Assembly: GCA_963767275.1 (NCBI GenBank)
Contig: CAVYDL010000001.1
Span: forward strand, 257,393 to 321,392
DNA length: 64,000 nt
Direction of reading: 5' to 3'
DNA from: an uncultured delta proteobacterium
GTDB lineage: Bacteria > Desulfobacterota > Binatia > UBA9968
The notes beneath the pieces are model-generated. The model saw only the letters and a list, made by a program, of their open reading frames with translations, had not been told where the DNA came from and made no database searches. Positions 2,347-42,784 of this stretch are shown here, piece after piece; the stretch's first letter is position 1; every line of letters begins with the position of its first letter. Made by a program: the position numbers and the translations under genes.

Positions 2347-2357
2347 TTACAAGGTGA

Positions 2358-3897: not shown

Positions 3898-3956
3898 ACC
3901 ATCGCCTCCCTAATCTTAAGTTTATTAGGCAACCAATTCGCTATTCGGCGGCGACA

Positions 3957-4586
3957 TTATCCGATGAGCTTGGCCAGTGTCAATGTCTTTGCCGGCCTTT
4001 CATGCTCGACGTCTAATCCTTGAAGCGACCGATCCATACGCGCGAAAGCTTGAAGAAACTTCTTCACATGTTGACCGGTGTTGTCGTCAGTGAGCTTGCC
4101 GCTGGCATCGAATAGCGGCGCCGCGGAAGGAATTTTGATCTCCGGCTGGGACATGACATGGGTGTCGGTGAAGACAAACGATTGGCGCAGCGCATGCTGG
4201 CAACGAATCGTCCCGCCCAGCCCAGGAGAGCAGCCCATCAGCGCCGCCGGCTTGCGGTTGAGCACGCACTTGCCGCTCGGCCGGGACGCCCAGTCGATGG
4301 CGTTTTTTAATACCCCGGGCACACCGTAATTATATTCCGGCGAAACGATCAGCAGCGCGTCGGCAGCGGCGATAAACGCTTTCATAGCCGCCACCGGTTC
4401 CGGGTCGCCTTTGACGAATACATCGTCGTTGTACGGCGGGATATCACCCAGCCGGGTAAAAATCTGGACCTCCATCCCCGCCGGCGCCAGCTCCGCGGCC
4501 GCTCGCAGCAATCCTTTGTTTAGCGAAGCCTCGCGCAAACTCCCACAAATTCCGGCAATCCGTAGAGCCATCCGACCTCCAGGCAA
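3957..4586 (-). CDS. NADPH-dependent FMN reductase (ChrR/YieF/SsuE-like flavoprotein); probable true start at 4571.
   Basis: MALRIAGICGSLREASLNKGLL...IPPYNDD...AADALLIVSPEYNYGVPGVLKNAIDWASRP is the typical NADPH-dependent FMN reductase fold signature. Confidence 0.8.
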   Translation of the reverse strand: MPGGRMALRIAGICGSLREASLNKGLLRAAAELAPAGMEVQIFTRLGDIPPYNDDVFVKGDPEPVAAMKAFIAAADALLIVSPEYNYGVPGVLKNAIDWASRPSGKCVLNRKPAALMGCSPGLGGTIRCQHALRQSFVFTDTHVMSQPEIKIPSAAPLFDASGKLTDDNTGQHVKKFLQAFARMDRSLQGLDVEHERPAKTLTLAKLIG

Positions 4587-7321: not shown

Positions 7322-7324
7322 GAA

Positions 7325-7669
7325 CTAGGAAAAATGCACATCGCTCTGGCCCTGATAAACTTTACCCTCGGTATCCGAAAAACTCACCGTCAGCTTGCCC
7401 GGCTTGTCGACTTTCAACGGAAAGGTAAAACTCGGATTCTGACTGACAGCCTGGGTCAGCTCCGTGCGCATCACTTCCTTGCCGTTGTACGCCACGGTCA
7501 TGGTATGAATAAATAGATAGTTCTTGGGAATAATCTTGTTCGCCTTATCGCGCTGGACGATCTCCATCGGATGGATCACCAGAGTGCGCACGCGAATCAC
7601 GTCGCCCTGCTTGATCGACGACGGCAAGCGAATACTGACTCTGCCTACCTCAGCCATAACTTTTCTCAA
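7325..7669 (-). CDS. soxZ: SoxZ thiosulfate-oxidation carrier subunit.
   Basis: VIRVRTLVIHPMEIVQRD...KIIPKNYLFIHTMTVAYNGKEVMRTELTQAVSQNPSFTFPLKV matches the SoxZ pattern (xHPMExG...IP...NGK.V...AVS.NP.F.F). Confidence 0.75.
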   Translation of the reverse strand: MRKVMAEVGRVSIRLPSSIKQGDVIRVRTLVIHPMEIVQRDKANKIIPKNYLFIHTMTVAYNGKEVMRTELTQAVSQNPSFTFPLKVDKPGKLTVSFSDTEGKVYQGQSDVHFS

Positions 7670-7674
7670 TCATT

Positions 7675-7725
7675 TTCCGAAAACGACTTGGACGTTTTGA
7701 ACGTCTGGAACGATTGGAACGCCGC
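7675..7725. repeat. TTGAAC-type intergenic repeat between soxZ and soxY.
   Basis: gacttggacgttttgaacgtctggaacgattggaacg. Confidence 0.6.
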
Positions 7726-7733
7726 GCCGCGGC

Positions 7734-8273
7734 TCAGCCCTGCGGCGGCAGATCACAGCCGCTGATGGTTACCCGCACATGCTTGCTCACCGCATAAAGC
7801 GTATCATCGCTCATCTCCGCGACCACGCGCACATCGGTGGAGGTCGCCAAACGCACGCTGGTGGCGACCGACGCCCGCCCCGACTCCGGCGTAAATGAGA
7901 ACTTCGCCAACATCGGCCGGCGGTTCTTGTCGGAAATAATATAAATACGCTTCACCTGCACCGCGCCGCTTACCGGCAAACTCGAGTCGATGGCGATCGC
8001 CACGCTACTGCCATCCTCGGCGATCTGCGGTAGTTCGACCTTAAGCTTGTCGTCACCGCTTTGGAATACGCGATTACCGAATAGCCGCTTCAAAGTCGCA
8101 TCGACCAGCTCGTCCGGCTGCGGCATGCCCAACGCGGCAACCTGAGCCTTTATCGTGCTTGGGATCAAAAGTTCTTTGAGCAAACCAGCGCCGCCAAGCA
8201 CGGTGACCAACACCCGTAGAAACCTTCTGCGACTCAGCACCGAAGAGTAAGCTACTGACTCGAATCGGCTCAT
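7734..8273 (-). CDS. soxY: SoxY-like sulfur-carrier protein with a Tat signal; the C-terminus is ...VTISGCDLPPQG, not the canonical GGCGG.
   Basis: MSRFESV...SRRRFLRVL twin-arginine motif. The body aligns to SoxY (VKRIYIISDKNRRPMLAKFSF...VRVTISGC). RBS-spaced ATG at 8271-8273. Confidence 0.7.
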   Translation of the reverse strand: MSRFESVAYSSVLSRRRFLRVLVTVLGGAGLLKELLIPSTIKAQVAALGMPQPDELVDATLKRLFGNRVFQSGDDKLKVELPQIAEDGSSVAIAIDSSLPVSGAVQVKRIYIISDKNRRPMLAKFSFTPESGRASVATSVRLATSTDVRVVAEMSDDTLYAVSKHVRVTISGCDLPPQG

Positions 8274-8414
8274 TATTGATCCGCGCATCGACTGTAATTT
8301 AGTAAATATGACTAAACCAATCAACTAGGTTTGATTTTACTTGACTTAGCCTGGGCGTTTGGTTATTCACGAAAACGACTCAACCAAACCGATCAAACTT
8401 TTGTGGAGATATCC

Positions 8415-9659
8415 ATGTCTAGATTCACGCGTAGAAGATTTCTCCAGGTTAGCGGCATGGGCGTCGCCGCGCTCAGCGCGGCGCGAGTGCCGGTGTTCGG
8501 CCAGGCGCGGCGCCGTGTCCTGGTCATCGGCGGCGGCTGGGGCGGCGCCACTGCGGCGAAGTATGTTCGTCTCACTGACCCGTCGATCGAAGTCACTGTG
8601 CTTGAACCTAACAAGGAATTCATTTCCTGTCCCTTCAGCAACCTCGTCGTGGCCGGCGTCGAATCGCTGAAGAGCCTGACCCTGAACTATAACGGCCTGA
8701 GAAAACATGGCGTGAAAATTCGCCATGAGGCTGCCGCCGCCATCGAGCCGGACAAGAAGCGCGTGCGCGTCGGCAGGGATTCACTCGAATACGACCGATT
8801 GATAGTTTCGCCGGGCGTCGATTTTCAGTGGGAACTGATCGACGGCTTGGCGCAGGCCAAAGACAAAGTACTCCACGCCTGGAAAGCCGGACCGCAGACC
8901 GTGCAGTTGGCCCAGCAGCTACAGTCCATGGCCGATGGCGGCGTTGTCGTCATGACCGTGCCGCCGGTCGCCTATCGATGCCCGCCCGGCCCCTACGAAC
9001 GGGCATCGATGATCGCTTGGTTGCTGAAAACCAAGAAACCCAAATCGAAATTGATCGTCCTCGACGCCAACAAAGACATCGTCTCAAAGACCGGGCTGTT
9101 CAAAGCGATATTCAAGGAATATGACGCCAACATCGAATACCGCCCAGCGCAAAAGGCCGAGAAGATCGATGTCGGCGCCAGAGAGATCACCACGGATACG
9201 GGCGACAAAGTGAAGTACGACGTGGTCAATGTCATTCCGCCGCAGCGCGCCGGCGCCATCGCCGTCGACGCCGATCTGGTCAGCGGCGACAAGCGCTGGT
9301 GCGAAGTCGATCATGTGAGTTATGAATCGCTGAAGCAGAAAAACATTCATGTCGTCGGCGACGCGACGATCGGCTTGCCCGTGCCCAAATCGGGCAACGT
9401 CGCCAACGCCATGGGAAAAATTTGCGCCGTCGCCGTTGCCAATTTGTTAAACGGCAAAGAGGCGCCGCAGATCGCTCCGGGCAACACCTGCTACAGTTGG
9501 GTCAGCGACAAGGAAGCGATCGCGGTGGTCAACGCGTATAAGATCGAAAACGGCAAGGTCGTTCAGATCGAGCAAAAACTCACACCGGGCAAGAGCGTCG
9601 GCACGGCGCAAAACTCGCTTTCCTGGCGCGCCAGCATCTGGAACGACATGTTAGGATGA
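8415..9659 (+). CDS. fccB: Flavocytochrome c sulfide dehydrogenase flavoprotein subunit (FccB/SoxF-like FAD oxidoreductase) with a Tat signal.
   Basis: MSRFTRRRFLQVSGMGVAALSAA, then VLVIGGGWGGATAAKY (FAD Rossmann) ...EPNKEFISCPFSN...CPPGPYER. RBS ggagat 7 nt upstream of the ATG at 8415. Confidence 0.8.
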   Translation: MSRFTRRRFLQVSGMGVAALSAARVPVFGQARRRVLVIGGGWGGATAAKYVRLTDPSIEVTVLEPNKEFISCPFSNLVVAGVESLKSLTLNYNGLRKHGVKIRHEAAAAIEPDKKRVRVGRDSLEYDRLIVSPGVDFQWELIDGLAQAKDKVLHAWKAGPQTVQLAQQLQSMADGGVVVMTVPPVAYRCPPGPYERASMIAWLLKTKKPKSKLIVLDANKDIVSKTGLFKAIFKEYDANIEYRPAQKAEKIDVGAREITTDTGDKVKYDVVNVIPPQRAGAIAVDADLVSGDKRWCEVDHVSYESLKQKNIHVVGDATIGLPVPKSGNVANAMGKICAVAVANLLNGKEAPQIAPGNTCYSWVSDKEAIAVVNAYKIENGKVVQIEQKLTPGKSVGTAQNSLSWRASIWNDMLG

Positions 9660-10276
9660 TCGAGGACACTTTCATGCGTAGATTACGATTCATGGCAGCG
9701 AGCTTATTAGGTTTATTGATGCTCACGGCGGCGGCGAGCGCCGGCCCCCTCGATTCTCCCGGCGCGCAGAAATCCCTCGTGTGCAGCGCCTGTCACGGCT
9801 TTGCCGGCAATACGCCAGGACAATACATGCCCGTGCTCGCCGGCATGAACGCCAATTATTTCAAGAAAGCCATCAAGGATTACGCCGAGGGCAAACGCCC
9901 GTCGCCGGAGATGGAACCTTACGCGAAGTATATTTTACAGTTCGGTTTGGATGAGATCGCAGATTATTTCGCCAGCCAAAAAAAGCCGGCGCCGGCCAAC
10001 CTAAAGGTCGCGGCCAAGGCACCCAGCCGTGGCTCCACCCTCGCCGCCCAGTGCATCGCCTGCCACGGTGCCAAAGGCGACGGTGACAACGAACGCGTCG
10101 TCCCGGCCCTGCGCGGACAACCCAGGGGTTTTCTGCAGACTCAGATGGCGCTGTTCGCCGGCGATAAGCGCAAATTGGAAATCGCTGAAATGGAAGAAGC
10201 GAAAAAGCGCAGCTTCAACGGACTCACCGAAGCCGACCTCACCGACCTGGCGACGTATTACGCGACGCTAAGATAA
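9656..10276 (+). CDS. fccA: Diheme cytochrome c (FccA-like cytochrome subunit); its start overlaps the fccB stop (ATGA).
   Basis: Signal peptide plus two CxxCH motifs (CSACH, CIACH), about 200 aa; ATGA overlap with the upstream stop at 9656-9659. Confidence 0.75.
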   Translation: MIEDTFMRRLRFMAASLLGLLMLTAAASAGPLDSPGAQKSLVCSACHGFAGNTPGQYMPVLAGMNANYFKKAIKDYAEGKRPSPEMEPYAKYILQFGLDEIADYFASQKKPAPANLKVAAKAPSRGSTLAAQCIACHGAKGDGDNERVVPALRGQPRGFLQTQMALFAGDKRKLEIAEMEEAKKRSFNGLTEADLTDLATYYATLR

Positions 10277-10580
10277 TCCCGAACACAGGGAGAACCCACC
10301 GGCCTGTGCGACGATGAGACCCCGTCGCAACGGTCCTTGCCCAGTAAAGGTGGAAAATTATTTCGCCGCAAGCGGATTTCGCCAGTGGCGACACCGGCTC
10401 CAAGCGGATCAGCTGATTTTTTTCGTTCGCTGAGCACCTTCGTCGATTTCTATATTGCTACACCCGGCAGCCTCGATCATCCGACCTCCATCGGGGCCTT
10501 TGAATGCAAAATATCGCCGGCTGCGGCTGGCAGCATCACGGCGAAGTTTGTATAAGAAACGTCGGAACTCGTTCAGCTTC

Positions 10581-11762
10581 ATGACTCCGGCAAACTCCGA
10601 CACCCTCTGGACCCGCGCTTTCGTACTGCTTTGCATCGTCCAGTTCTTAGGCTACGCGCAGCACTTCGTGCTGCAACCGACCTTGCCAATCTACGTGACT
10701 CACCTCGGTGCCACCCCATTCGTCGTTGGCTTGGTGATGGCTTCCTTCGCCGCCACCAGCATGATCTTGCGGCCGCTGGTGGGCTATTGGTCCGACCGCT
10801 GGAGCGAAGCCGGTGTGATGATCTCCGGCCTGCTAATCCAAGGCGCCAGCGTGTTGCTTTGCTACCTGCCGTTTGTCACCACCACCATGATCGCCAACAG
10901 CTGCCGCGGCGTCGGCTGGGCCAGCGTCAATTCCGGCGGCTACGCGCTGCTCGCCCAGAGCGCTCCCGCCGCCCGCCGCGGTGAAGCGTCGGGTTACTAC
11001 AGCGGCGCCCAGGGCAGCGCGACGATTCTTTTGCCAGCCTTGGCGCTCTGGTTGATCGATGCGCCCTTCGGCGGCTTTCACGTCGTCTTCGCGGTTTCCA
11101 TGAGTATCGCCGTCACCGGCGCCGCTCTCGGACTGCTCCTGCGCGATCGCGCCGTAAGCAGCGCGCGGCAACAGCGCAACGCCCTCGCCGGTCCCTGGTG
11201 GCGTGAGATCATTAGAATTCCCGACAAAGATATTTTGCTCGCCGCCGGCTTGCTGTTCGCATTGCATGTTTCGCTGCCCGCCGTCGCCGGCTTTCTGGTT
11301 CTCTACGCGCGCCAGTTGGGCATCGAGCATTTCGGCTGGTACTACGTTGCCAGCGGCGCGACGAGTCTAATTGCCCGCCCGCTGCTCGGCCAGCTCTCCG
11401 ACAAGATTGGCCGTGGCGCCGCTATCGGCGCCGGTTTCATTCTTGAAGCCGCGGCATTCTGCGTCGTCGTAAACGCCACCACGCTGGGCGGCATGATCGT
11501 CTCGGGAATGCTTTACATGACCGGCTCGTCAATGGGCACGGCGGCGACGTTGGCGCTCGCCCTGCAGCACGCCAACCCGGAACGGCGCGGCCAAGTGATC
11601 GCGACTTATTCGATGGCCTATCCGCTCAGCGCCGGCGTCGGCTCATTGCTCGCCGGCAGCGCCATCCAAATGGCCGGATACAGCTGGATGTTTATTTTCA
11701 TCGCCCTGCTCAATATCCCCGGCCTGTGGATCACCTGGAAAAACCGCGCGAGCTTGCAATGA
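10581..11762 (+). CDS. MFS transporter, paralog 1 of 5.
   Basis: About 390 aa, 12 predicted TM segments. N-terminus LWTRAFVLLCIVQFLGYAQHFVLQPTLPIYVTHLGATPFVVGL and the RRGEASGYYSGAQ motif are shared by all five paralogs. Confidence 0.8.
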   Translation: MTPANSDTLWTRAFVLLCIVQFLGYAQHFVLQPTLPIYVTHLGATPFVVGLVMASFAATSMILRPLVGYWSDRWSEAGVMISGLLIQGASVLLCYLPFVTTTMIANSCRGVGWASVNSGGYALLAQSAPAARRGEASGYYSGAQGSATILLPALALWLIDAPFGGFHVVFAVSMSIAVTGAALGLLLRDRAVSSARQQRNALAGPWWREIIRIPDKDILLAAGLLFALHVSLPAVAGFLVLYARQLGIEHFGWYYVASGATSLIARPLLGQLSDKIGRGAAIGAGFILEAAAFCVVVNATTLGGMIVSGMLYMTGSSMGTAATLALALQHANPERRGQVIATYSMAYPLSAGVGSLLAGSAIQMAGYSWMFIFIALLNIPGLWITWKNRASLQ

Positions 11763-11789
11763 CAATGATGAAGAAACGTTTTCACCACG

Positions 11790-11870
11790 AACGGCACCGA
11801 GTTCACGAAGGCAAGCGATATCCTATCAACGCCTATACGCACTTTCCCGGACTTCGTGTCCTTCGTTGTG
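11790..11870. repeat. CACGAAG/CTTCGTG hairpin element between MFS1 and MFS2.
   Basis: gttcacgaaggcaagcg ... cttcgtgtccttcgttgtgaac (inverted repeat). Confidence 0.55.
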
Positions 11871-11884
11871 AACGATGCTAATCC

Positions 11885-13066
11885 ATGCCCACGCCACGAT
11901 CACATACACTCTGGACGCGCACGTTTCTCTTGCTTTGCACCGCGCAGTTCTTCGGCTCGTCGCAGCATGCGCTGCTGCAGCCGACCTTTCCGCTCTACAT
12001 TACGTCCCTCGGCGGCACGCCGTTTCAAGTCGGCCTCGTGCTGGCATGCTTTGCAGTGACCAGTGTGGTGTTCCGTCCGCTGATCGGCGGATGGGCGGAT
12101 CAATGGTCGGAGGCCGGCGTCTCGTGTTGCGGCTTGTCGTTGTTATCCGCTGCCATGTTGCTCTGCTTTATTCCCTTCGCAGAGGCGATCATGTTCGCCA
12201 ATGCGCTGCGCGGGCTCGGTTGGGCGGCGATGAGCGCGGCGGGATACTCTTTGCTCGCTCTCAGCGCGCCGCCGCAACGGCGCGGCGAAGCGTCCGGTTA
12301 TTACAGCGGCGTCCAAGCGAGCGGGACGATTTTATTTCCGGCGGTGGCCCTCTGGCTGATTGACGCGCCGTTTGGCGGCTTTCATGTGGTTTTCACGGCA
12401 GCGCTTGTGCTTGCCGCCTTGGGCGCCGGCACCAGCGGGATTCTATTCCGGCGCCTGCCGAAGAAATCTCACGATCGCCACGGCGCGGAACTCGGGCCTT
12501 GGTGGCGGGAGATTCTCAATGTCCTCGATCGTGAGATTATTCTCGCCTCGGTCTTGTCGTTTCTATCCCATGTGACATTCCCGGCGCTGGCGAGCTTTCT
12601 GGTGCTCTATGCGCGTGAAATCGGCATCGAAAACCTGGGTTGGTTCTTCGTCGTCAGCGGCGCCACCAGCTTACTGTGCCGGCCGCTGCTCGGCAAAGTT
12701 TCCGATCGTATCGGCCGCGGACGCGCGCTGCTCGCGTGCTTCGCTTTGGAGAGCGTCGCCCTAGCGGCACTCGCTTTCTCATCCAGTCTTTTTGCCTTGA
12801 TGGTTTCGGGCATGCTCTACATGGTCGGCTTGGCGATGTCGAGTTCAACCACATTGGCGATAGCCATGGAACAAACCAAGCCGGAACGCCGCGGCAGGGC
12901 GATGGCAACGTTTTCCGTTGCGCTTCCCTTGAGCAACGGCATCGGCGCGCTGATCTGCGGCAGCATCGTTCAAGGGTTGGGCTTTTTCTGGATGTATCTC
13001 GCCGGCGCGGCCTTCGCCGCGGTCGGCTTGATCATCACCATCGTCAACCGGGCGCAACTGAAATGA
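11885..13066 (+). CDS. MFS transporter, paralog 2.
   Basis: LWTRTFLLLCTAQFFGSSQHALLQPTFPLYITSLGGTPFQVGL ... RRGEASGYYSGVQ. Confidence 0.8.
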   Translation: MPTPRSHTLWTRTFLLLCTAQFFGSSQHALLQPTFPLYITSLGGTPFQVGLVLACFAVTSVVFRPLIGGWADQWSEAGVSCCGLSLLSAAMLLCFIPFAEAIMFANALRGLGWAAMSAAGYSLLALSAPPQRRGEASGYYSGVQASGTILFPAVALWLIDAPFGGFHVVFTAALVLAALGAGTSGILFRRLPKKSHDRHGAELGPWWREILNVLDREIILASVLSFLSHVTFPALASFLVLYAREIGIENLGWFFVVSGATSLLCRPLLGKVSDRIGRGRALLACFALESVALAALAFSSSLFALMVSGMLYMVGLAMSSSTTLAIAMEQTKPERRGRAMATFSVALPLSNGIGALICGSIVQGLGFFWMYLAGAAFAAVGLIITIVNRAQLK

Positions 13067-13494
13067 TCTAAGGCTAGTCGGGATTGAGAATGCGGTGCCG
13101 CCGGCGTTATCACGAGACCTGCCAGTTGCATCGCCCGCCGCAAGCGCGTCGATACTCACCCTCGTAACCGCCGTTGAAATAAGTTATGAAAATCAAAACA
13201 CTTGCGCGCTGCACGTTGAGTTATCGCAAACACTTTCGCTATTACTTTCTTAGAGGTTGGCCGCCGGCGTTTGCCTCCTGGAGCTGCCGTGGCCCGCGGC
13301 ATTCCTAGCGGCAGAGCCGCCAACGAAAAAAGAAGTAGTTTAACCCAATGAGAATACTATTGCGTTAACCACTTCATTGTCCGGTCGAAAGATCGCCGGG
13401 GCGCGGCAGACGCGGCAAGTTTACTTTCCAGGCTTTCTCGATCATCCAGCTTGAAAAGTTCATGGATTGGCCGTCAGGATAACTCAGAAATCCG

Positions 13495-14477
13495 ATGAGT
13501 AGAAAATTCTGGCCGCTTGTCTTTGCGCTCTACTCTTGACCGCAAGCGTTCCGGTCCAGGCACAGCAGCCAAAGAGGATCCCGCGAGTGGGGTATCTCGC
13601 GGCCGTTTCTGCTTCCGCTGACGCGCCTCGGCTGGAGGCGTTTCGCCAAGGGCTGCGTGACTTTGGCTATATTGAGGGCAAGAACATTTTTGTTGACTAC
13701 CGACATCAAAGCCGCAGCTTCGAGCGCCTTCCCGACCTCGCCGCCGAGTTGATCGCTCTGAAAATCGACGTGCTCGTCGCAGTCACGACGAATGCGGCTC
13801 TCGCTGCCAAGAAGGCTACCACGACCGTCCCATCGTTTTTATGGGAGTGACCGATCCGATTACCGCTGGGTTGGTCGAGAGTCTGGCGCGACCCGGCGGA
13901 AACAGTACTGGGGTTACCAACATGGCGGCGATTTTGACCGGTAAACGACTGGAGTTATTGAAAGAGGCCATTCCCAAGGTGCGTCGTGTTGCCGTCCTGT
14001 GGGACCCTCAGGCCCCGGGCTCGACACCACAATGGAACGAAAGCCAGGAGCCGGCCCGGGCGCAGGGCCTGCAACTTCATTCAATGCAGGTAAGCAGCGC
14101 CGACAAATACGAGGCCGCTTTCAAAGAAGCCGTCAAGGCACGCAGCACCGCTGTCTGGATCACACTGAACCCTTTGGCCAATTCTAACCAAAAATTGCTC
14201 GCGGCGCTGGCCGTCAGTCATCGCTTGCCATCGATATGTGCGCGCGCAGATTACGCGGAAAATGGTTGTCTAATCGCCTATGGACCCGGTTACACTACCG
14301 AGGGTAAAGACGGAGCGCGCTACGTCGACAAGATCTTGAAGGGCGTGAAGCCTTCACGAGATTCCAGTGGAGCAGCCGATGAAATTCGAGCTCCTGGTTA
14401 ATTTGAAGACCGCCAAGCAGATCGGCGTCACGGTTCCGCCCTTGGTGCTTTATCGGGCCGATAAGCTGCTGAAGTAA
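13495..14477 (+). pseudogene. ABC_sub_bind-type (PF04392-like) periplasmic substrate-binding protein, broken by 3 or more frameshifts (near 13510, 13850 and 14380).
   Basis: MSRKFWPLVF (frame a), then LTASVPVQAQQPKRIPRVGYL...IEGKNIFVDYR...LKIDVLVAVTTNAALAAKKATTTVP (frame b), then GVTDPITAGLVESLARPGGNSTGV...CLIAYGPGY...YVDKILKGVKP (frame c), then FELLVNLKTAKQIGVTVPPLVLYRADKLLK* (frame d). Confidence 0.6.
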
Positions 14478-14697
14478 CAAAGCGATCGGATATTGCTCAC
14501 CGCCTGATTTTGCCCATCAGCCGGGCGCAGACGCGAGCGGCTGAAGAGCGTCGCAGATCGGTTAGCAGCCTCGCTTCCGTAGTTTTTCCATCAACTCGAT
14601 TCCAATCTCGGTTCGTGTTAGCGTGGGCGCGCTTTGCCGCCCACGTGTCGTCTTGCATTCGACAGGCCCGCGCAAAGAATTTCGCGACAATCATTTG

Positions 14698-15876
14698 ATG
14701 GCACACCAGCGGCTCGATACCATCTGGACGCGCACGTTTATTCTTTTATGTGCCGCTCAGTTGCTTAGCTACGCGCAGCATTTCATGCTCGCGCCGGTGC
14801 TACCGCTTTTCCTCACCCAACTGGGAGCGCCGCCGGTCGTCGTCGGCATCGTGCTCGCCTGCTTCGCCGTCACCAGCGTCATCGTCCGTCCGCTGGTCGG
14901 TCACTGGGCCGACCGCTGGAGCGAAGCCGGCGTAATGATCGCCGGCTCGCTGTTTCAAGCGGCGGCCATTTTTCTCTGCTTCATGCCGTTTATCTCCGCC
15001 ACGGCATTGGCCAACGGCCTGCGCGGCATCGGCTGGGCCGGATTGAACACCGGCGGCTACTCGCTCCTGGCGCTGATCTCGCCGGAGAAAAAACGCGGCG
15101 CCGCCTCGGGTCTCTACAGCGGCGTGCAAAGCTCGGCGCAAATCTTTTTTCCGCCCATCGCCCTCTGGCTGCTCTACGCCTCCTTCGGCGGCTACCGCCT
15201 GGTATTCGTCATCACCGCGATCTTTTCCGTCGCCGGAGCAATCGCCGGCTGGGCGATGGCGTCGTCGGTGCCGCATCCGGCGAAGGCGAATCGCACCGAC
15301 GAAGCAACCGATTGGTGGCGCGAAATATTTCATTTCGTCGAACCGGAGATTTTACTGCCGTCGCTGCTTTTGCTCTGGCTCAACCTGGCGCTGCCGGCGA
15401 TCACCAACTTCAGCATTCTCTACGCCAAAGAACTCGGCATCGGCAATTTCGCGCCCTACTTCGTTGTCATCGGCGCCACCAGCATGCTCGGCCGGCCGCT
15501 GCTCGGACGCCTGTCCGATCGCATTGGCCGCGCTCGTTCCATCGCCGCCGGATTCGCGCTGCAGACGGTTGCTCTGGTGCTCATTACCGCCATGACGAAT
15601 TTACTGGGTATGATTGTCTGCGGGGCGATTTACATGCTCGGCAACGCCATCGGCAGCTCGACCACGCTGGCGCTGGCCGTCGAACGCGCCGATCCCCAAC
15701 GCCGGGGTAAACAGATGGCGACTTTCTCCGTCGCTTATCCGTTAAGCTATGGCGTCGGCTCGCTGATCACCGGCAGCGCCATCGACATCGCCGGCTACAT
15801 CGGCATGTTCTTACTGCTGGCAATCACGCAAGCAGGCGGACTGTTATTTATCGTCGGGCGACGCGCCAAACTGTAA
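14698..15876 (+). CDS. MFS transporter, paralog 3.
   Basis: IWTRTFILLCAAQLLSYAQHFMLAPVLPLFLTQLGAPPVVVGIVLACFAVTSVIVRPLVGHWADRWSEAG. Confidence 0.8.
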   Translation: MAHQRLDTIWTRTFILLCAAQLLSYAQHFMLAPVLPLFLTQLGAPPVVVGIVLACFAVTSVIVRPLVGHWADRWSEAGVMIAGSLFQAAAIFLCFMPFISATALANGLRGIGWAGLNTGGYSLLALISPEKKRGAASGLYSGVQSSAQIFFPPIALWLLYASFGGYRLVFVITAIFSVAGAIAGWAMASSVPHPAKANRTDEATDWWREIFHFVEPEILLPSLLLLWLNLALPAITNFSILYAKELGIGNFAPYFVVIGATSMLGRPLLGRLSDRIGRARSIAAGFALQTVALVLITAMTNLLGMIVCGAIYMLGNAIGSSTTLALAVERADPQRRGKQMATFSVAYPLSYGVGSLITGSAIDIAGYIGMFLLLAITQAGGLLFIVGRRAKL

Positions 15877-15979
15877 ATACACGGGACTGCGAAAATTCTC
15901 TGCGCCGTTACTCCGGCACTCCAGTATTGCAATCGTCCGGCCGCATGAGTTTTTGCAGGCGCCATGCTAGACCACAACG

Positions 15980-17164
15980 ATGTCCGTTGCATCGTCGAAC
16001 CGATCCCTCTGGACGCGAGGGTTTGTGCTGCTCTGCGTGGCGGAATTTCTTTGCTATGCGCAGCACTTCGTTTTGCAGCCGGCGCTGCCCCTTTATATCA
16101 CCCACCTGGGTGGCTCGCCGTTCATCGTCGGTCTGGTTATCGCCGCTTTCGGCATTACCAGCGTCATCTCGCGACCGATCATCGGCTATTGGGTCGATCG
16201 CTGGAGCGCTCCCGGGATGATGGTTCTCGGCATGATCGGCCAGGGGCTGAGCATTTTGTTTTGCTTGCTCCCGATCAACGCCGCCGTGATCGTTTCCAAC
16301 GCGCTGCGCGGTATTGGCTGGTCGAGCATGGCGGCATCGGGTTACACGCTGCTGGCAACGTCCGCGCCGCCGCAACGTCGCGGTGAAGCATCCGGCTATT
16401 TCGGCGGCGTCCAGTCCAGCGCGACGATTATTTTTCCCGCCATAGCGCTTTGGGTCATCGACTCACCGCTGGGCGGTTTCCGCGCGGTATTTCTGTTGGC
16501 CATGACTTTCGTTTTCGCCGGCGCAATCGCCGCATGGGCTCTGGCGCGTATCGCACCGCGGCACAGCCAGGAAAGTAAAATGGACGCCGGGGAACCTTGG
16601 TGGCGCGAGATTATCAATGTCGTCGACCGCCACATTCTCACCGCGGCGTTGCTGATTTTTACTTTGAACATGTCGCTGCCCTGCTTCTCCAGCTTCATTG
16701 TGCTTTACGCCCGCGATCTCGGCGTCGGTAACTTCGGTTGGTATTACGTTGCCGTCGGCGTGACCAGTGCGTTGGGGCGCCCGCTGCTCGGCCGTTTTTC
16801 CGACAAGTTCGGCGCCGGCCGGTCATTGCTGATCGCTTTCAGTCTAGAGACTGTCGCCTTGCTGATCATGCCGCTCGCCGGCAGCCTCCCGGGCTTGATC
16901 TTGGGCGGTGCTCTTTGGTACACGGGCGCCGCCATCGGCGGCGCGCGGATCATGGCACTGGCAATGGAATCTGCGCCGGCACAGCGCCGCGGCCGGGCGA
17001 TGGCGAGCTATTCCACCGCTTTACCCCTCAGCAACGGTATTGGGGCGTTGATCAACGGCATAGTCGTCGACCTGGCCGGCTTCCGTTGGATGTTCACCAT
17101 CGCCGGCATCCTCTGCGCCGCCGGATTCGTTGTGATTTGGAAACAATGGGCGAAATTGCGCTAG
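15980..17164 (+). CDS. MFS transporter, paralog 4.
   Basis: LWTRGFVLLCVAEFLCYAQHFVLQPALPLYITHLGGSPFIVGL ... QRRGEASGYFGGVQ. Confidence 0.8.
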   Translation: MSVASSNRSLWTRGFVLLCVAEFLCYAQHFVLQPALPLYITHLGGSPFIVGLVIAAFGITSVISRPIIGYWVDRWSAPGMMVLGMIGQGLSILFCLLPINAAVIVSNALRGIGWSSMAASGYTLLATSAPPQRRGEASGYFGGVQSSATIIFPAIALWVIDSPLGGFRAVFLLAMTFVFAGAIAAWALARIAPRHSQESKMDAGEPWWREIINVVDRHILTAALLIFTLNMSLPCFSSFIVLYARDLGVGNFGWYYVAVGVTSALGRPLLGRFSDKFGAGRSLLIAFSLETVALLIMPLAGSLPGLILGGALWYTGAAIGGARIMALAMESAPAQRRGRAMASYSTALPLSNGIGALINGIVVDLAGFRWMFTIAGILCAAGFVVIWKQWAKLR

Positions 17165-17331
17165 GGCGAATTACTTTCCGCCGCGGCAATCCACCACAAT
17201 AGTCATCACTGTAGGAGCGACAGAAACCTATGATCATGAAGGCACACGAGGGAAACCGATGTGTGAATTAAGTACCCGACACTTCGCGTCGTCGCGGTGA
17301 ACATTTCAGCCGGACTGCCTTCAAAACAACC

Positions 17332-18516
17332 ATGACCATTGCCAACCACGCATCTCTTTGGACCTCCACGTTTGCCCTGCTCTGCGTAGTCCAGTCGTTG
17401 GGTTACGCGCAGCAGGCCATGCTCAACCCGACTATCCCGCTCTACATCACTCAGTTGGGCGGTTCGCCCTTCGTGGTCGGATTGACGATCTCCTCGTTTG
17501 CCGCAACCAGCGTGATAGCCCGGCCCTTTATCGGATACTGGTCCGACCGCTGGAGCGAGTGCGGCGTGTTGGGGTTCGGCCTGCTCGTGTTGGCGGCGAG
17601 CATGCTGCTGTGCTTTTTTCCCTTCGTAAGCATGGTTCTGCTCGCCAACGCCCTGCGCGGCATCGGCTGGGCCGGAGTCAACGCCGGCGGTTACGCTCTC
17701 TTGGCGCGCATCGCGCCGGAATCCCGCCGCGGCGAGGCGTCGGGATATTACAGCGGCGCGCAATCGACGCCGACGGTACTCTTTCCCGCCGTCGCACTGT
17801 GGCTGTTGCATGCGCCTTTTGGCGGTTACAATTTGGTATTTACCATCATGATCGCTTTGGGTCTCGCCGGAGCCGGCGTTTGCTTGTTCATGTCCCGGCA
17901 GGTCCCGGCGGTTGAGCGTCGGGCCGAATCATCATCAGGGTCGCTCCCTTGGTGGCGGCAAATCTTCAGCGTGGCGGAACAGGGCGTGTTGCTGCCCGCG
18001 GCTTTGATGTTCTGCAATCAGTTGAGTTTTCCGGCGATCACCAGTTTCATCGTGCTTTACGCCCGCGAGATCGGCATCGGCGCCATCGGTTCCTATTTCG
18101 TCGTCAGCGGCATCACCAGCGTGCTCGCCCGCCCATTGCTCGGTCGTGTTTGCGATCGCATCGGCATCGGCTATTCGCTGGTCGCGACTTTCACGCTGCA
18201 GGCCCTTGCCCTGCTGTTATTGGCCGCCGCGTCAAATCTCGCGACGATTTTGTCCGCGGGAGTGCTCGCCATGCTGAGCATGGCGATCGGCGGTTCGGCG
18301 ACCCTGATCATTGCCATGAATCGCGCCACGCCGGAGCGGCGCGGCCGCTTCATGGCGTCATTTTCGATCGCCTACCCGCTCGGCTACGGTGTCGGTGCGG
18401 TTATCACCGGCACTGCCGTCGAGATGATCGGATATTCTTGGACTTATCTTTTTCTCGCTGCGCTTGGCCTATCCGGACTTGTGTTGACCCTAACCAACTG
18501 GTCGGATCTTCGCTAG
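17332..18516 (+). CDS. MFS transporter, paralog 5.
   Basis: LWTSTFALLCVVQSLGYAQQAMLNPTIPLYITQLGGSPFVVGL ... SRRGEASGYYSGAQ. Confidence 0.8.
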   Translation: MTIANHASLWTSTFALLCVVQSLGYAQQAMLNPTIPLYITQLGGSPFVVGLTISSFAATSVIARPFIGYWSDRWSECGVLGFGLLVLAASMLLCFFPFVSMVLLANALRGIGWAGVNAGGYALLARIAPESRRGEASGYYSGAQSTPTVLFPAVALWLLHAPFGGYNLVFTIMIALGLAGAGVCLFMSRQVPAVERRAESSSGSLPWWRQIFSVAEQGVLLPAALMFCNQLSFPAITSFIVLYAREIGIGAIGSYFVVSGITSVLARPLLGRVCDRIGIGYSLVATFTLQALALLLLAAASNLATILSAGVLAMLSMAIGGSATLIIAMNRATPERRGRFMASFSIAYPLGYGVGAVITGTAVEMIGYSWTYLFLAALGLSGLVLTLTNWSDLR

Positions 18517-18618
18517 CAATGAATTTAATTCACAACTCATTCCGCTCGCCGGCGAACCATGGGAAGATAGCGCAAGCCGGATTGCCAGCTTTAATGCCCG
18601 GCCTATGGTAGGAGATCA

Positions 18619-19458
18619 ATGATCTATCCGGCGACAAATAACGCCGACGGCGCAGCCGTCGCCGCTCACTACGACGAGCTTGATCGGTTTTACCGAGCGG
18701 TGTGGGGAACCAATCTGCATCATGGTTATTGGCAGCACGGCGACGAGAGTACCGAAGACGCAATACTAAACCTGACCAGGCTCGTCGCGACACTGGCACA
18801 GATCACAACCGGCAGCCGAGTTTGCGACTTCGGCTGCGGCTACGGCACCCCCGCGCGGTTTTTCGCGCAAGAATACGGCGCCGATGTTACCGGCATGACG
18901 ATTTCGCGCCGCCAGCATGATCTTGCGCGCGACATAGCCGGAAATAACGTCAGCTTCTTGTTGTGCGACGGCCTGGCCAATAATTTACCTGAGGAGTCTT
19001 TCGATGCGCTGGTTGCAATCGAAAGCACCGAACACATAGGCGACAAGCCGGGCTTTTTTCACGAAGCTCATCGGTTGCTGCGCCCCCAAGGTCGCGTAGT
19101 CGTCGCCGCCTGGCTTGCGCGCGAGCAAGCTACACCTCTCGAAGCTAGATTTTTACTCGAACCGATCTGCGTAGAAGGGCGCCTGCCCAACATGGCCGCG
19201 CCGTCGGAATATCTAACCATGCTCAAGACGGCCGGATTTCGTGAGCCTGTTTTCTCGGATCTGAGCCGCAAAGTCAGCAAGACCTGGAGCATATGCGCTT
19301 ATCGCTTGATAAAAACCATTGCCTCCAATGCCGAACTCCGCCACGAGTTGTTCCGACCCGACTGGCCCAACCGTGTGTTTGCGAAAACTGTGTTTCGCAT
19401 CTGGCTCGCGTACCACACCGGTAGCATGCGCTACGGGATTTTCTCCGCCACGAAATAA
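18619..19458 (+). CDS. Class I SAM-dependent methyltransferase (gamma-tocopherol-MT/RebM-like fold).
   Basis: HYDELDRFYRAVWGTNLHHGYW ... VCDFGCGYG (motif I) ... DALVAIESTEH ... LLRPQGRVVVAAW. Confidence 0.75.
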   Translation: MIYPATNNADGAAVAAHYDELDRFYRAVWGTNLHHGYWQHGDESTEDAILNLTRLVATLAQITTGSRVCDFGCGYGTPARFFAQEYGADVTGMTISRRQHDLARDIAGNNVSFLLCDGLANNLPEESFDALVAIESTEHIGDKPGFFHEAHRLLRPQGRVVVAAWLAREQATPLEARFLLEPICVEGRLPNMAAPSEYLTMLKTAGFREPVFSDLSRKVSKTWSICAYRLIKTIASNAELRHELFRPDWPNRVFAKTVFRIWLAYHTGSMRYGIFSATK

Positions 19459-19569
19459 CCACCGATAGAACCGCATTGCCGGCAGTGGTCGATCGATGGC
19501 TATTCTCCGCGCCATGGAGTAATAACATTTTCGTTTGCAATTTTGCGATTCGACAGGAAATGGCTGGCC

Positions 19570-20572
19570 ATGAAATTCGGCATCTTCATTTTCGGCGACA
19601 ATCATCCTGAGCTCGGCCGCTCCAATCAAAAATATTACGAAGAAGTATTGACCATGGCCGAGTGGGCCGAGGAGTTGGGCTTCGACTCGTTCTGGTTGGG
19701 CGAGCATCATCTTTACTGGTACGGCACCTGCGTTTCGCCGCCGATGATCATCGCCGCCCTCGGACAGCGCACCAAACGCATTCGCTTGGGCCCGGCCATC
19801 GCCGTGCCGTCATTTCACAACCCGCTCATCGTCGCCGAAGAGTACGCCCTGGCCGACAACCTGTGCAACGGCCGTTTGGAGTTCGCCCTCGGCAGCGGTT
19901 TCTCGCCGGTGGAGTTTCAACAGTTCGGCATGGGCGTGGAGGAAGCCAAAGAAAAGTTCTGGGAAGGCACCGAGATCATCTTCAAAGCCTGGCAAGGCGA
20001 GACATTTTCCTACCATGGCAAGCATTACAACTTCGATAACATCTCGCTTTACATGCAGCCGCTGCAAAAGCCGATGCCGCCGACCTGGCTCGCCGCCTCC
20101 AGCGACGAGACCCTGATCAAAGCCGGCGCGATGGGCCTGCCGATGATGGGCATCCCGTTCGCGCGCTCGCATGATCTCGCCGACGTAAAGGTGAAAAACG
20201 ATCTCTACACCGGAGCGTTTGCCAAGGCGGGCCACAAGAACACGCCGGAGATCATGGTCGCCATGCATTTTTATCTGCACGACAACGAACAAGCCGCCGT
20301 CGACGGCGCACGGCCTTATTTCGAGCGCGCGATTTCGTTTCACCCGACCCACCGCCGCCCCGGTTCGAAGATTCCGCAATTCGACAACATCAAGCAACAA
20401 CGCACTGGCGCTGTTCACGACGCCGGAAGATACCGTTGCCATCCTGCGCGAATACGAAAAGACCGGCGTCACCCATGTCATCGCCATGGTCAACTTCGGC
20501 GGCGTGCCGATGGGCGACGTGCGACGCACCCTGGAGCTAATGTCGAAGGAAGTCTTGCCGAAGTTTAAATAG
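19570..20572 (+). CDS. LLM-class (luciferase-like) flavin-dependent oxidoreductase; apparent frameshift near 20395-20410.
   Basis: MKFGIFIFGDNHP...FDSFWLGEHH...RIRLGPAIAVPSFHNPL, then continues in a second frame ...ALALFTTPEDTVAILREYEKTGVTHVIAMVNFGGVPMGDVRRTLELMSKEVLPKF. Confidence 0.7.
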
Positions 20573-20620
20573 ATCGCTGCCGGTGTCCTCGTCCGCCTCG
20601 CCCCGGCAACTGCGGCAGCC

Positions 20621-21151
20621 TTGTCGAAAATCGTTGCCGTAACTGGTAAATCATTAGAGTCGCTTACAGTAGCGGCCGGGAAGAAACTATGCGGACTCGA
20701 CAAACACTGCATCGGCGCAATCATCGGCTTGGCAATTATGCTGGCGCCGTCACCGTCGCTCCATGCCAACGAGCCCTCGCCCGTGGGCCTATGGAAAACC
20801 ATCGACGATAGTTCGGGCCAGCCCAAGGGTTTGGTGCGCATTCGCGAAGCGAACGGCCGGTTTGAGGGCAAGATCGAACAGATCTTTCCCAAGCCGGGCG
20901 AAGATCCGGCACCCAAGTGCGATAAGTGCGATGGCGCGAGGAAAAACCAGCCGGTCCTCGGCATGACGATACTCTGGGGCCTAACCAAACAGGCCGCCGA
21001 CTACCAAGGCGGCGAGATTCTCGACCCGGAGAACGGCAAAATTTACCGCGCCAAGATGACACTGCTCGACGGCGGCAAGAAGCTCGAAGTGCGCGGCTTC
21101 ATCGGCGTGTCGCTATTTGGCCGCAGCCAAATCTGGCTGCGGGAAGAATAA
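20621..21151 (+). CDS. DUF2147 domain protein (secreted); the true start is probably internal, near the signal peptide IGAIIGLAIMLAPSPSLHA.
   Basis: GLWKTIDDSSGQPKGLVRI...GKIEQIF...CDKCDGARKNQPVLGMTILWGL...GGEILDPENGKIYRAKMTLLDGGKKLEVRGFIG...SQIWLR matches DUF2147 along its full length. Confidence 0.8.
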   Translation: MSKIVAVTGKSLESLTVAAGKKLCGLDKHCIGAIIGLAIMLAPSPSLHANEPSPVGLWKTIDDSSGQPKGLVRIREANGRFEGKIEQIFPKPGEDPAPKCDKCDGARKNQPVLGMTILWGLTKQAADYQGGEILDPENGKIYRAKMTLLDGGKKLEVRGFIGVSLFGRSQIWLREE

Positions 21152-21200
21152 ACCATTGGCGCTTTTTTGGATTTACCTGTTAGAAAATTAGGACCCAGCC

Positions 21201-22659
21201 ATGACCGAAGTTTATTTTCAAGACACCACCATCCGCGACGGCGCGCAAAGCCTGTGGGCATACAATATCCGCACCGGGATGATGGCGCCGATCTGCGCCC
21301 AACTCGACGAGGCCGGCTTCGAAGCCATCGAACTCGGCGGTCCCATCGAAATGCCCAAGTGCGTCAAAGAACTGCGCGAAGATCCCTGGGAGCGCTACCG
21401 TCTGATTATTCCCAAATTCAAACGCACGCCGTTGCGCTTGGTGCATGGCTCACGCAGCGGCTTTGCCATTTATCCGGACGCCTTGCATCAACTCTTCGAT
21501 ACCTGCATGGCCAACGTCGGCGTCAGCGAAGTGCGCATCTCGGATTCATGGAACGATGCCGCGGATTGGGCCTGGCGCGTCAAACAGGCCAAGCACGCCG
21601 GCTTGAAACCGATTATCAATTTGATCTACACCGTGTCGCCGCGCCACACCGACGAATATTACGCCGCGAAAATTCACGAAGCCAAAGCCCTCGACGTCTA
21701 CCGGATCATATTCAAGGACCCCGGCGGGATCTTGACGCCGGAGCGCACCAGGACCGCGGTGCCGGCGATCCTCAAAGCCGCCGGCGATATGACGGTGGAG
21801 CTGCACACCCACTGCACCACCGGCCTCGGCACGCTGTGCTGCCTGGAGGCGATCAAAGCCGGCATGGTGCATATCAACACGGCGATTCCGCCGCTCGCCG
21901 ATGGCTCGGGAAATCCTTCCCTGTTCAATGTCGCCATGAACGCGCGCGCTCTGGGTTATAAAACCATGATCGACGAAGCGCCGCTGCGCGAAGCTTCCAA
22001 GTTTCTCACCGCCTGCGCCAGACAAGACAATCTGCCCATCGGCAAAACGCCCGAATACGACTACGCGCAGTACGTCCATCAAATCCCCGGCGGCATGATT
22101 TCCAACCTGCGCCATCAATTGAGCCGCGTCGGCATGGACGACAAGATCGCTCAGACTTTAGAGGAAGCCGCCCAGGTGCGCGCCGATTTCGGTTATCCGA
22201 TCATGGTCACGCCGCTGTCGCAGTTCGTCGGCAGCCAAGCCGCCATCAATGTAATTGTCGGCGAGCGTTACAAACAGGTCACCGATCAGACCATCGAATA
22301 CGCCATGGGCATCTGGGGCAAGGAAGGCGCCGCAGTTCATGGACCAGAACGTCAAAGAAAAAATACTCAATCGCCCGCGCGCCAAAGAGATCGCCGGCCG
22401 CCCCCACCCCACCGACACCCTTGAGGAGCTGCGCAAAAAGTATGGCGGCAAGGACGACGAAGAACTCTTGTTGCGATTTTTTTCCAGCAAAGAGGACGTC
22501 GACCGCATGTATGCCGCCGGCCCGGCGCGGACCTATTCCAGCGGCAGTAATCCGCTGGTCAATCTCGTCGGCGAGTTGTCGAAACAAAAAGACCGCTCTA
22601 GCGTGTTCATTCAACGCCCCGGCTTAACCTTGCGCATGCAACGGCGCAGCGCAGCCTGA
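21201..22659 (+). CDS. Carboxyltransferase-domain protein (pyruvate carboxylase subunit B / oxaloacetate decarboxylase alpha / transcarboxylase 5S-like, no biotinyl domain); apparent frameshift near 22320-22340.
   Basis: FQDTTIRDGAQSL (HMGL-like) ... VELHTHCTTGLGTLCCLEAIKAGMVHINTAI (PYC_OADA), then the frame shifts to ...KEKILNRPRAKEIAGRPHPTD... Confidence 0.7.
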
Positions 22660-39060: not shown

Positions 39061-39141
39061 CGGTAATGCGACATTGACAGCAGCGCGCGTTCTCATCTAA
39101 AAGGAATCCCAACAACCGGCGGACAATTGAAGGAGAACCAT

Positions 39142-40159: not shown

Positions 40160-40210
40160 TTCAAAGAGTTTCCGAAACGCCAAGGTGGAGCATGCCTCGA
40201 CAAGCTCAGC

Positions 40211-40501: not shown

Positions 40502-40565
40502 ACAGAAAGAGATCGAATGCAAATCTTTTTCCGTTCGTCCTGAGCCCGTCGAAGGCCTCTGAGAT
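40500..40565. repeat. MITE/REP-like element fragment.
   Basis: ttccgttcgtcctgagcccgtcgaaggcctctgagattgtgttcagcg, compare 24555-24600. Confidence 0.55.
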
Positions 40566-40633
40566 TGTGTTCAGCGATTTGCGTAACTTTCCAGGAAAAT
40601 GAAAGTCACGCTCCAGCGCGTTTGGAGATCAGT

Positions 40634-41620: not shown

Positions 41621-41652
41621 AACCGATCACGAATCGGTTTGCCGATTACTGT

Positions 41653-42729: not shown

Positions 42730-42784
42730 ATAGCGCACAACAAATAAGGGCGGGTTTGAAACCCGCCCCTACGAATTCGATTAT

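Follow-up and report, generated by a model that had tools for sequence, protein, structure and literature searches.

Why does a genome of the class Binatia, abundant uncultured bacteria of soil and sediment, carry five similar transporter genes side by side, and what do these transporters serve? In the window (the whole 64 kb stretch of DNA that was analysed) we identified an array of five genes for MFS_1 transporter paralogues (M1 to M5; Table 1). All five proteins match Pfam MFS_1 (PF07690) with 147-182 bits against a cutoff of 33.4 bits, and 97 columns of their alignment are invariant; the array is real and far beyond chance. The genes lie head-to-tail on one strand with spacers of 122, 1631, 103 and 167 bp, and 102 bp separate M5 from a methyltransferase gene, which is followed by a gene for a luciferase-like (LLM) flavin enzyme. 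This is the layout given in the preliminary description, as are the common N-terminus and the RRGEASGYYSG-Q loop (slightly deviant in M3 and M4) visible in the alignment. The protein lengths, given there as identical, are nearly so (392-394 aa). The array is interrupted once, between M2 and M3, by about 430 bp without a gene and by an ABC_sub_bind gene with three frameshifts, also as described.

Table 1. Features of the transporter array and its surroundings (positions are those of the window).
Feature	Position	Strand	Assignment and evidence
FMN reductase	3957..4586	-	NADPH-dependent, divergently placed; PF03358 133 bits
TPR protein	4792-5283	-	Conserved divergent neighbour; Pfam, synteny
Abhydrolase_11 hydrolase	5288-6025	-	Conserved divergent neighbour; Pfam, synteny
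M1	10581..11762	+	MFS_1 transporter paralogue, 393 aa; Pfam MFS_1 147 bits
M2	11885..13066	+	MFS_1 paralogue, 393 aa; Pfam MFS_1 149 bits
Intergenic stretch	13067..13495	.	About 430 bp, 5' of the ABC_sub_bind gene; no gene
ABC_sub_bind gene	13496..14477	+	Solute-binding protein (PF04392); fragments match consecutive parts of PF04392
M3	14698..15876	+	MFS_1 paralogue, 392 aa; Pfam MFS_1 149 bits
M4	15980..17164	+	MFS_1 paralogue, 394 aa; Pfam MFS_1 182 bits
M5	17332..18516	+	MFS_1 paralogue, 394 aa; Pfam MFS_1 161 bits
Methyltransferase	18619..19458	+	Class I SAM-dependent small-molecule methyltransferase, 279 aa; Pfam CMAS 83 bits, Methyltransf_11
LLM enzyme	19570..20572	+	Luciferase-like flavin-dependent oxidoreductase; Bac_luciferase 203-217 bits
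DUF2147 protein	20690..21151	+	Conserved downstream neighbour; PF09917 113 bits, synteny
OadA-like protein	21201..22659	+	OadA / pyruvate carboxylase subunit B-like carboxyltransferase; HMGL-like, PYC_OADA

The array had been read as a recent five-fold local amplification. Pairwise identity among the five copies is 46-54% for protein and 59-63% for DNA, and a neighbour-joining tree built from 121 members of the family places them in five separate orthologue clades across Binatia, one per paralogue. All five genes recur in unchanged order at related loci in four other assemblies (L005, L009, L010 and L012; the L005 orthologue of M1 is 97% identical), and more distant relatives carry one to four of the five with the relative order kept. 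Purifying selection acts on all copies (dN/dS 0.07-0.15; 0.135 for M1, 0.066 for M2, 0.090 for M3, 0.148 for M4 and 0.127 for M5). Judged from the DNA identity, the five clades and the order repeated in four assemblies, the array is old and inherited. The tandem layout and the equal gene lengths are all that speak for recent tandem amplification under dosage selection, or for expansion or collapse during assembly, and both are extremely improbable given how far the copies have diverged and that independent assemblies contain the same array.

The clades differ in distribution. The host and all compared loci belong to Binatia. M3 and M4 are the two most widespread clades of the array, and the M3-M4 pair is its commonest form. 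M2 is the most conserved and most widespread clade (76-98% identity to its database relatives among the 120 matches listed, and more than 1000 close relatives in metagenomes), and in many relatives it is a single copy in other and unrelated contexts. The M1 clade is confined to closer relatives, as are all seven members of the M5 clade. The common order, the widespread M3-M4 core and the occurrence of M2, M1 and M5 mainly in closer relatives suggest that the array began as one or two genes and expanded. Arrays of tandem secondary-transporter paralogues are a general phenomenon in bacterial genomes. Like others, this one is head-to-tail on one strand with short spacers, and each copy is kept by selection. 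Unlike the usual tandem pair, it has five members, whose orthologue groups can be traced and whose order is kept throughout a class-level lineage, and is thus larger and more stable.

The five proteins are predicted to be 12-helix MFS_1 secondary transporters. The AF2 model of M2, the sole paralogue modelled, has 12 long helices plus a short loop helix (pLDDT 86.7, pTM 0.86), and Foldseek aligns it to VMAT2 and NorA with TM scores of 0.77-0.83. NorA of Staphylococcus aureus, human VMAT2 and VAChT, DHA1-type antiporters of solved structure with this 12-helix fold (TM of about 0.8 to the M2 model), are also the best PDB sequence matches (56 bits), although identity is just 18-20%. Shared with them are loops resembling motif A that follow TM2 and TM8, and the motif B arginine, readable in TM4 of the alignment of the five. 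The loops between TM2 and TM3 and between TM8 and TM9 are of the motif A type (G-x-x-x-D-R/K-x-G-R). That of the N-domain is invariant and atypical (G68-x-W70-x-D72-x-W74-S75, with W-S for G-R); that between TM8 and TM9 reads R266-P-L-L-G270-x-x-x-D274-x-x-G277. In contrast to NorA, antiporter motif C (G-x-x-x-G-P-x-x-G-G) is absent from TM5 in a HMMER alignment, where ILGPGIGGF of NorA aligns with ilFPav and a 9-residue insertion before GGF, so that FP and the insertion stand in place of GPxxGG. The protonatable, membrane-embedded coupling residues of NorA, E222 (TM7) and D307 (TM10), are replaced by small neutral residues (A/A/T/S/T and S/A/A/A/A in M1 to M5). Unlike for DHA1 antiporters, there is no drug-resistance context or regulator at the array.

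The best-scoring named NCBIfam models are PRK05122, PRK12382 and the staphylopine exporter CntE (NF047574), proteins of similar size (about 390-405 aa). Scores are 31-66 bits for the first two (cutoffs 374 and 364) and 36-70 bits for CntE (cutoff 235). Thus, by NCBI criteria, the transporters are not members of these families. We take PRK05122 and PRK12382 to be YfcJ and YhhS of Escherichia coli, the functions of which are poorly defined. Opine or metallophore biosynthesis genes, expected for a CntE system, are absent at the array, and cnt-like genes were not identified in the window. The five proteins form an MFS subfamily of ordinary kind. At thirteen positions, each orthologue group has a fixed residue of its own; most of these positions lie in transmembrane helices (including TM1, TM4, TM7 and TM11), and it is thus plausible that substrate specificity has diverged among the paralogues. 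Of the two benefits first proposed for the array, diversified specificity therefore stands as plausible; dosage does not fit such old, diverged copies.

The constant partner of the array is the LLM enzyme. Orthologues at least 65% identical adjoin the array as 22 full-length copies and 2 split ones. The gene encodes 333 aa in L005, has a 1-bp insertion near 20405 in the window, and is under constraint (dN/dS 0.124). The protein is matched best by the MupA/Atu3671 LLM model and by 7BIP, an LLM structure to which a paper on rishirilide biosynthesis refers. The adjacent methyltransferase, in contrast, appears from its distribution to be an accessory, optional gene. Its assignment to the class I SAM-dependent enzymes is borne out, but its reading as an integral cap is not supported: we found it in 14 of 80 non-duplicate loci, and it is missing from most M3-M4-LLM loci, as well as from L009 and L010 despite their complete set of five transporters. 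Its best PDB matches are MitM and 3BUS, and its best specific matches are MitM, RebM, CMAS-type enzymes and sarcosine/dimethylglycine N-methyltransferase, with all NCBIfam scores below cutoffs. Gamma-tocopherol methyltransferase, to which it had been likened, did not appear among its profile or PDB matches.

Several other neighbours recur. The divergent trio of FMN reductase, TPR protein and Abhydrolase_11 hydrolase lies beside the array in at least 12 loci, and adjoins M3 orthologues in distant Binatia. The FMN reductase is a possible flavin supplier for the LLM enzyme. The OadA-like gene (with a 1-bp insertion near 22330) is a neighbour in 23 loci; its product scores 315 bits against NCBIfam PRK09282, below the cutoff of 402, and no biotin-carrier domain is among its Pfam matches. 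Also recurrent in relatives are genes for DUF2147 proteins, NMT1 (SsuA-like) binding proteins, an ABC ATPase and permease, CMD proteins and 2-hydroxyacid dehydrogenases. In about 17 loci, the gene for the SsuA-like protein immediately follows that of the last transporter. Genes for the SsuA-like protein and the ABC components are not present in the window's own cluster. Neither core genes for PKS, NRPS or terpene pathways nor regulators of the TetR or MarR type were identified at the array. The conserved neighbours look suited to catabolism or uptake, not to biosynthesis. The window as a whole is rich in transport genes, with 14 binding-protein genes in 64 kb.

This neighbourhood in Binatia matches the parts list of the alkanesulfonate utilisation operon ssuEADCB (FMN_red-family reductase, LLM enzyme, NMT1 binding protein, ABC permease and ATPase). 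However, scores fall well short of the Ssu families: the LLM enzyme reaches 52 bits against a cutoff of 518 for SsuD, the FMN reductase 27.5 against 164 for SsuE, and the binding proteins of relatives 64-81 against 163.5 for SsuA. The window cluster also lacks the binding protein and ABC genes of ssu operons, which in turn lack MFS permeases. For transporters, LLM enzyme, FMN reductase and binding proteins alike, all family-level matches to characterised equivalogs are far below cutoff.

The explanation that we favour, as somewhat better than an even prospect, combines an old inherited array, solute permeases serving the LLM pathway, and frameshifts due to assembly error. Five diverged transporters, each functional on its own and vertically inherited in this Candidatus Binatia genome, would move a set of related small organic solutes over the inner membrane, with specificity divided among them. 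They would serve a pathway containing a two-component flavin enzyme, and substrate uptake would be more likely than drug-type efflux. Counting against uptake, the nearest matches among solved structures and named models are exporters (NorA, VMAT, CntE, MxcK and BcbE).

Those same matches underlie the main alternative, which retains the earlier idea of an efflux-and-modification module: five proton-coupled MFS exporters would carry out of the cell a small metabolite that the methyltransferase and the LLM enzyme produce or modify. We consider it a tentative option, with about one chance in four left to it in our judgement. The nearest structures and models are DHA1-type exporters (NorA and VMAT2, with CntE, MxcK and BcbE below threshold), the methyltransferase is closest to natural-product tailoring enzymes, and the LLM enzyme has the matches noted above, one of them linked to rishirilide biosynthesis. 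However, the essential acidic residues of NorA and antiporter motif C are missing, there is neither a biosynthetic core gene nor an efflux-type regulator nearby, the methyltransferase is absent from most M3-M4-LLM loci and from two genomes with the complete array, and what is conserved nearby encodes binding proteins, an ABC importer, hydrolases and dehydrogenases. It is possible that a hydrophobic metabolite is exported.

A slightly less probable alternative is that transporters and LLM cluster are neighbours by descent only, i.e., that the array holds unrelated general permeases and its synteny is functionally meaningless. Conserved synteny in one class may indeed reflect shared ancestry rather than functional coupling, and all loci come from Binatia. 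In addition, accessory genes come and go, M2 orthologues stand alone in several unrelated contexts, and the window is packed with transport genes. Against this, adjacency is kept where transporter identity has dropped to 55-65% and LLM identity to 65-70%, and it survives the insertion of a sulfur-oxidation island and other surrounding rearrangements. The frequent occurrence of M2 orthologues alone elsewhere, and the lack of SsuA-like and ABC genes in the window cluster, also count against a role of the permeases in the LLM pathway.

The third component of the favoured explanation concerns the ABC_sub_bind gene, previously described as decayed. Relative to the intact L005 orthologue, it has three uncompensated 1-bp indels (near 13506, 13828 and 14353). 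The orthologue is intact in L005, L006 and L011 (327 aa in the first two), an intact copy in a relative is about 94% identical in DNA, and the gene lies between M2 and M3 in four genomes. With the frame corrected, the gene has a dN/dS of 0.07, its differences are spread 8/4/54 over the three codon positions (54 of 66 at the third), and in-frame stop codons were not found; the corrected gene does not have the signature of relaxed selection. Uncompensated 1-bp indels also occur in two lactamase_B genes and in the FMN reductase, LLM and OadA-like genes of the window. Its genes for 2-hydroxyacid dehydrogenase and TctC are also split or cut short, so that at least six other window genes are affected. 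Related long-read MAG loci commonly contain split genes as well. Indels in so many conserved neighbouring genes argue for assembly error, and the frameshifts are most likely single-base errors of long-read assembly rather than gene decay. A genuine, very recent pseudogene in this strain is unlikely, though the three indels in 1 kb exceed the local rate of about 0.4 per kb (Poisson P of about 0.01), the 5.9 kb of transporter genes contain none, and the gene is dispensable, as it is absent in L009, L010 and L012. The stretch preceding it is poorly conserved and indel-rich relative to L005 (the corresponding gap is 468 bp in L005 and 446 bp in L006), and neither an Rfam match nor a convincing promoter or terminator was identified in it.

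The presence of ABC_sub_bind and SsuA-like NMT1 proteins raises the idea that periplasmic binding proteins assist the MFS permeases in uptake that feeds a two-component flavin monooxygenase. Among secondary transporters, those of the TRAP and TTT types are established to depend on binding proteins; we know of no such case for MFS, and consider the idea highly improbable.

This locus reveals no new principle in transport or gene organisation. Its main value is corrective: the array is inherited rather than amplified, and the methyltransferase is optional. The indels of the ABC_sub_bind gene, most likely artefacts, are a warning on pseudogene calls in this assembly. For Binatia, five orthologue groups stably linked to the LLM enzyme provide a defined target for work on uptake or release.

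The five tandem transporter genes (M1 to M5, numbered 5' to 3') followed by a methyltransferase gene and a gene for a luciferase-like flavin-dependent oxidoreductase (LLM), the arrangement given in the preliminary description, were recovered by ORF calling, Pfam matches and alignment. All five transporters match Pfam MFS_1 (147-182 bits; gathering score 33.4). The spacers are 122 bp (M1-M2), 1631 bp (M2-M3), 103 bp (M3-M4) and 167 bp (M4-M5), with a further 102 bp between M5 and the methyltransferase gene. The M1-M5 alignment has 97 invariant columns and shows the N-terminal and RRGEASGYYSG-Q signatures reported earlier. An Rfam scan of 9500-21500 (E up to 1) gave zero matches, with no riboswitch or leader in any spacer or within the 430-bp stretch upstream of the binding-protein gene (13067-13495). 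Promoter-like sites occurred at chance level in a promoter scan, nothing terminator-like was found in any spacer separating transporter genes, and a repeat search identified coding-sequence paralogy alone, with no intergenic motif common to the spacers. The spacers between the genes of the array change much faster than the genes themselves: the M4-M5 spacer (17165-17331) corresponds to 361 bp in the related locus L005 (15324-15684), and the two do not align.

Features of the transporter array in the window (transporters from the ORF list)
Feature	Coordinates	Strand	Remark
M1	10581-11762	+	393 aa
M2	11885-13066	+	393 aa
ABC_sub_bind (PF04392) gene	13496-14477		in fragments, interrupts array
M3	14698-15876	+	392 aa
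M4	15980-17164	+	394 aa
M5	17332-18516	+	394 aa
Class I SAM-dependent methyltransferase	18619-19458		LLM flavin enzyme gene next

Pairwise identities among M1-M5 are 46-54% (protein) and 59-63% (DNA), and all five genes, in unchanged order, are present in four other, independent assemblies (L005, L009, L010 and L012). This divergence and recurrence rule out the recent amplification suggested initially. They also rule out mis-assembly, because an assembler can neither merge nor multiply copies that differ this much. A tree of 121 family members, built by neighbour joining from 83 input sequences (the window and 82 loci), contains five clades, one per paralogue. The M3 and M4 clades are the most widespread and those of M1 and M5 include closer relatives only. 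M2 forms the most conserved clade (76-98% identity across the 120 database relatives listed), and its orthologues are often solitary and located elsewhere than in an array. The copy number in relatives is one, two, three, four or five, and the relative order never changes. For each of M1-M5, dN/dS relative to L005 is 0.07-0.15; thus, we conclude that all five transporters are selectively maintained. The window encodes five MFS permeases that are functional, diverged long ago and form a conserved array beside an orthologous LLM enzyme.

Nearly all related loci are from MAGs named Candidatus Binatia or, in older naming, 'Deltaproteobacteria', many of them long-read soil MAGs. A few carry other-phylum labels yet show the same synteny, and these are probably mis-binned. 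DNA identity to L009 is 92% for M1 and 88-90% for M3-M5, but just 77.5% for M2; identity to L006 is 73% for M1, 81% for M2 and 80% for the binding-protein gene. The dS of the latter relative to L005 (0.257) is about twice that of neighbouring genes. By these sequence comparisons the ancestry of the array is mosaic, and the segment carrying M2 and the binding-protein gene (11852-14478) was apparently replaced through recombination with a different Binatia lineage.

Orthologues of the LLM gene (at least 65% identity) adjoin the array as 22 full-length and two split copies. The methyltransferase, previously described as capping the array, was identified in only 14 of 80 non-duplicate loci and is missing from L009 and L010, despite their five transporters. 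Thus, the conserved partner is the LLM enzyme, not the methyltransferase. Among close relatives the methyltransferase gene is variable (present in the window, L005 and L012), and M5 almost abuts the LLM gene in L009 (16853-16930) and L010 (16441-16517). LLM genes also lie beside single-copy M2 genes, but we rejected these as a second MFS-LLM link because they are 22-28% identical or undetectably similar to the array LLM and because Binatia have many LLM genes. A second, unrelated LLM gene in the window (41653-42738, minus strand) lies beside NMT1-type genes (39127-40059 and 40565-41620), so that 39127-42738 is another pairing of LLM and SsuA-like genes.

ORF clustering over all loci, with annotation of representatives, revealed a recurring layout. 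On the divergent upstream side are genes for TctC, lactamase_B, NADPH:FMN reductase, a TPR protein and Abhydrolase_11, followed by one to five MFS genes. Downstream, and partly optional, are an NMT1 (SsuA-like) binding protein, the methyltransferase and the LLM gene, in some loci with a second NMT1 binding protein, ABC ATPase and permease after the LLM gene. Farther downstream are DUF2147, an OadA-like carboxyltransferase, a CMD-family protein and 2-hydroxyacid dehydrogenase. This parts list is similar to that of uptake clusters for two-component flavin monooxygenases, such as ssuEADCB, but scores against the Ssu models are far too low (SsuD 52 vs a cutoff of 518, SsuE 27.5 vs 164, SsuA family 81 vs 163.5), and in the window itself the cluster has neither the SsuA-like binding protein nor the ABC genes. 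Across all neighbours, each specific NCBIfam model scored below cutoff. A sulfur-oxidation gene set (YeeE/YedE-like Sulf_transp, SoxZ, SoxY, flavocytochrome c sulfide dehydrogenase FccB and cytochrome c) lies between the Abhydrolase_11 gene and M1 (6044-10276). It looks like an inserted block, as it is present in L005, L010, L013, L015 and L058 and absent from the corresponding position in L006, L012 and L019.

AF2 predicts M2 to be a canonical MFS protein with 12 helices (pLDDT 86.7, pTM 0.86); helix number was taken from this model because Kyte-Doolittle counts were too noisy. The structures that match it best are VMAT2 and NorA (TM about 0.8, identity 18-20%), and NorA also ranks first among PDB entries by sequence (56 bits). 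Unlike NorA, the proteins have FP and a 9-residue insertion in place of antiporter motif C (GPxxGG) in the NorA alignment, and A/S/T and A/S at the positions of the essential E222 and D307. Named NCBIfam models (CntE, PRK05122, PRK12382) scored 31-70 bits on M1-M5, below their cutoffs of 235-374. A profile search of 1.84 billion representatives returned 669 clusters at E up to 1e-30, including distant Firmicutes members; the only names recovered were 'MFS transporter' and 'MFS family permease', and thus the search brought up no characterised relative. Literature searches on transporters or MFS proteins of Binatota/Binatia, and on MFS systems that depend on binding proteins, yielded nothing relevant to this family.

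Each permease may carry a related small solute for a pathway of the LLM enzyme and FMN reductase, probably by uptake. We favour this direction because the neighbours are catabolic or uptake-type genes and because a biosynthetic core gene, an efflux regulator and the DHA1 coupling features are all missing. Export is less likely on these grounds but is a serious rival, because the nearest known relatives of the transporters are exporters. Synteny without functional meaning is a slightly less probable explanation. Solute-binding-protein genes are very dense in the 64-kb window, which has about 14 (five TctC, four NMT1 (SsuA-like), four SBP_bac type and one ABC_sub_bind), and thus a binding-protein gene lying beside an MFS gene is by itself weak evidence. 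For most of these genes a membrane-component partner is not obvious.

The binding-protein gene within the array had been considered decayed. Relative to L005, to which the window is 91.5-96% identical (DNA) over large aligned blocks, it shows uncompensated 1-bp indels at three places (near 13506, 13828 and 14353). Its orthologues in L005 and L006 were called intact (327 aa), and L011 has one unbroken match (87% identical). With the L005 frame projected, dN/dS is 0.07, third codon positions hold 54 of the 66 differences from L005, and there are no stop codons; decay is therefore not upheld. Further uncompensated 1-bp indels occur in the LLM (20405), OadA-like (22330), lactamase_B (3560) and FMN reductase (4041) genes, a second lactamase_B gene is apparently in pieces, the 2-hydroxyacid dehydrogenase gene is split, and one of the TctC genes is truncated. 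Indel or split sites in the window, which affect many genes that are otherwise conserved, are at 777-3900, 4041, 20405, 22330, 23395-24473 and 37813-38863, and split transporter and LLM genes were also found in other long-read MAG loci. Assembly error is the simplest reading of the binding-protein gene indels. A real, very recent inactivation is retained because three indels in 1 kb exceed the local rate of about 0.4 per kb (Poisson P about 0.01), but it is improbable given the dN/dS, third-position bias, lack of stops, intact orthologues and indel-hit neighbours. Indel errors in this assembly appear to occur at about 0.4 per kb, making pseudogene calls anywhere in the window suspect. An antisense ORF of 392 aa (19810-20988, minus strand) opposite the LLM and DUF2147 genes is what a greedy ORF caller selects in place of the LLM gene with its frameshift. 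This ORF is almost certainly spurious and a possible trap for automatic annotation.

The feature is of an ordinary kind, a conserved array of several paralogues from an MFS subfamily that is centred on Binatia and uncharacterised. The N-terminal domain is strongly conserved, and 13 alignment positions, including sites in TM1, TM4, TM7 and TM11, are fixed differently in each group. This pattern in the alignment fits a division of specificity among paralogues that may operate on a common mechanism.
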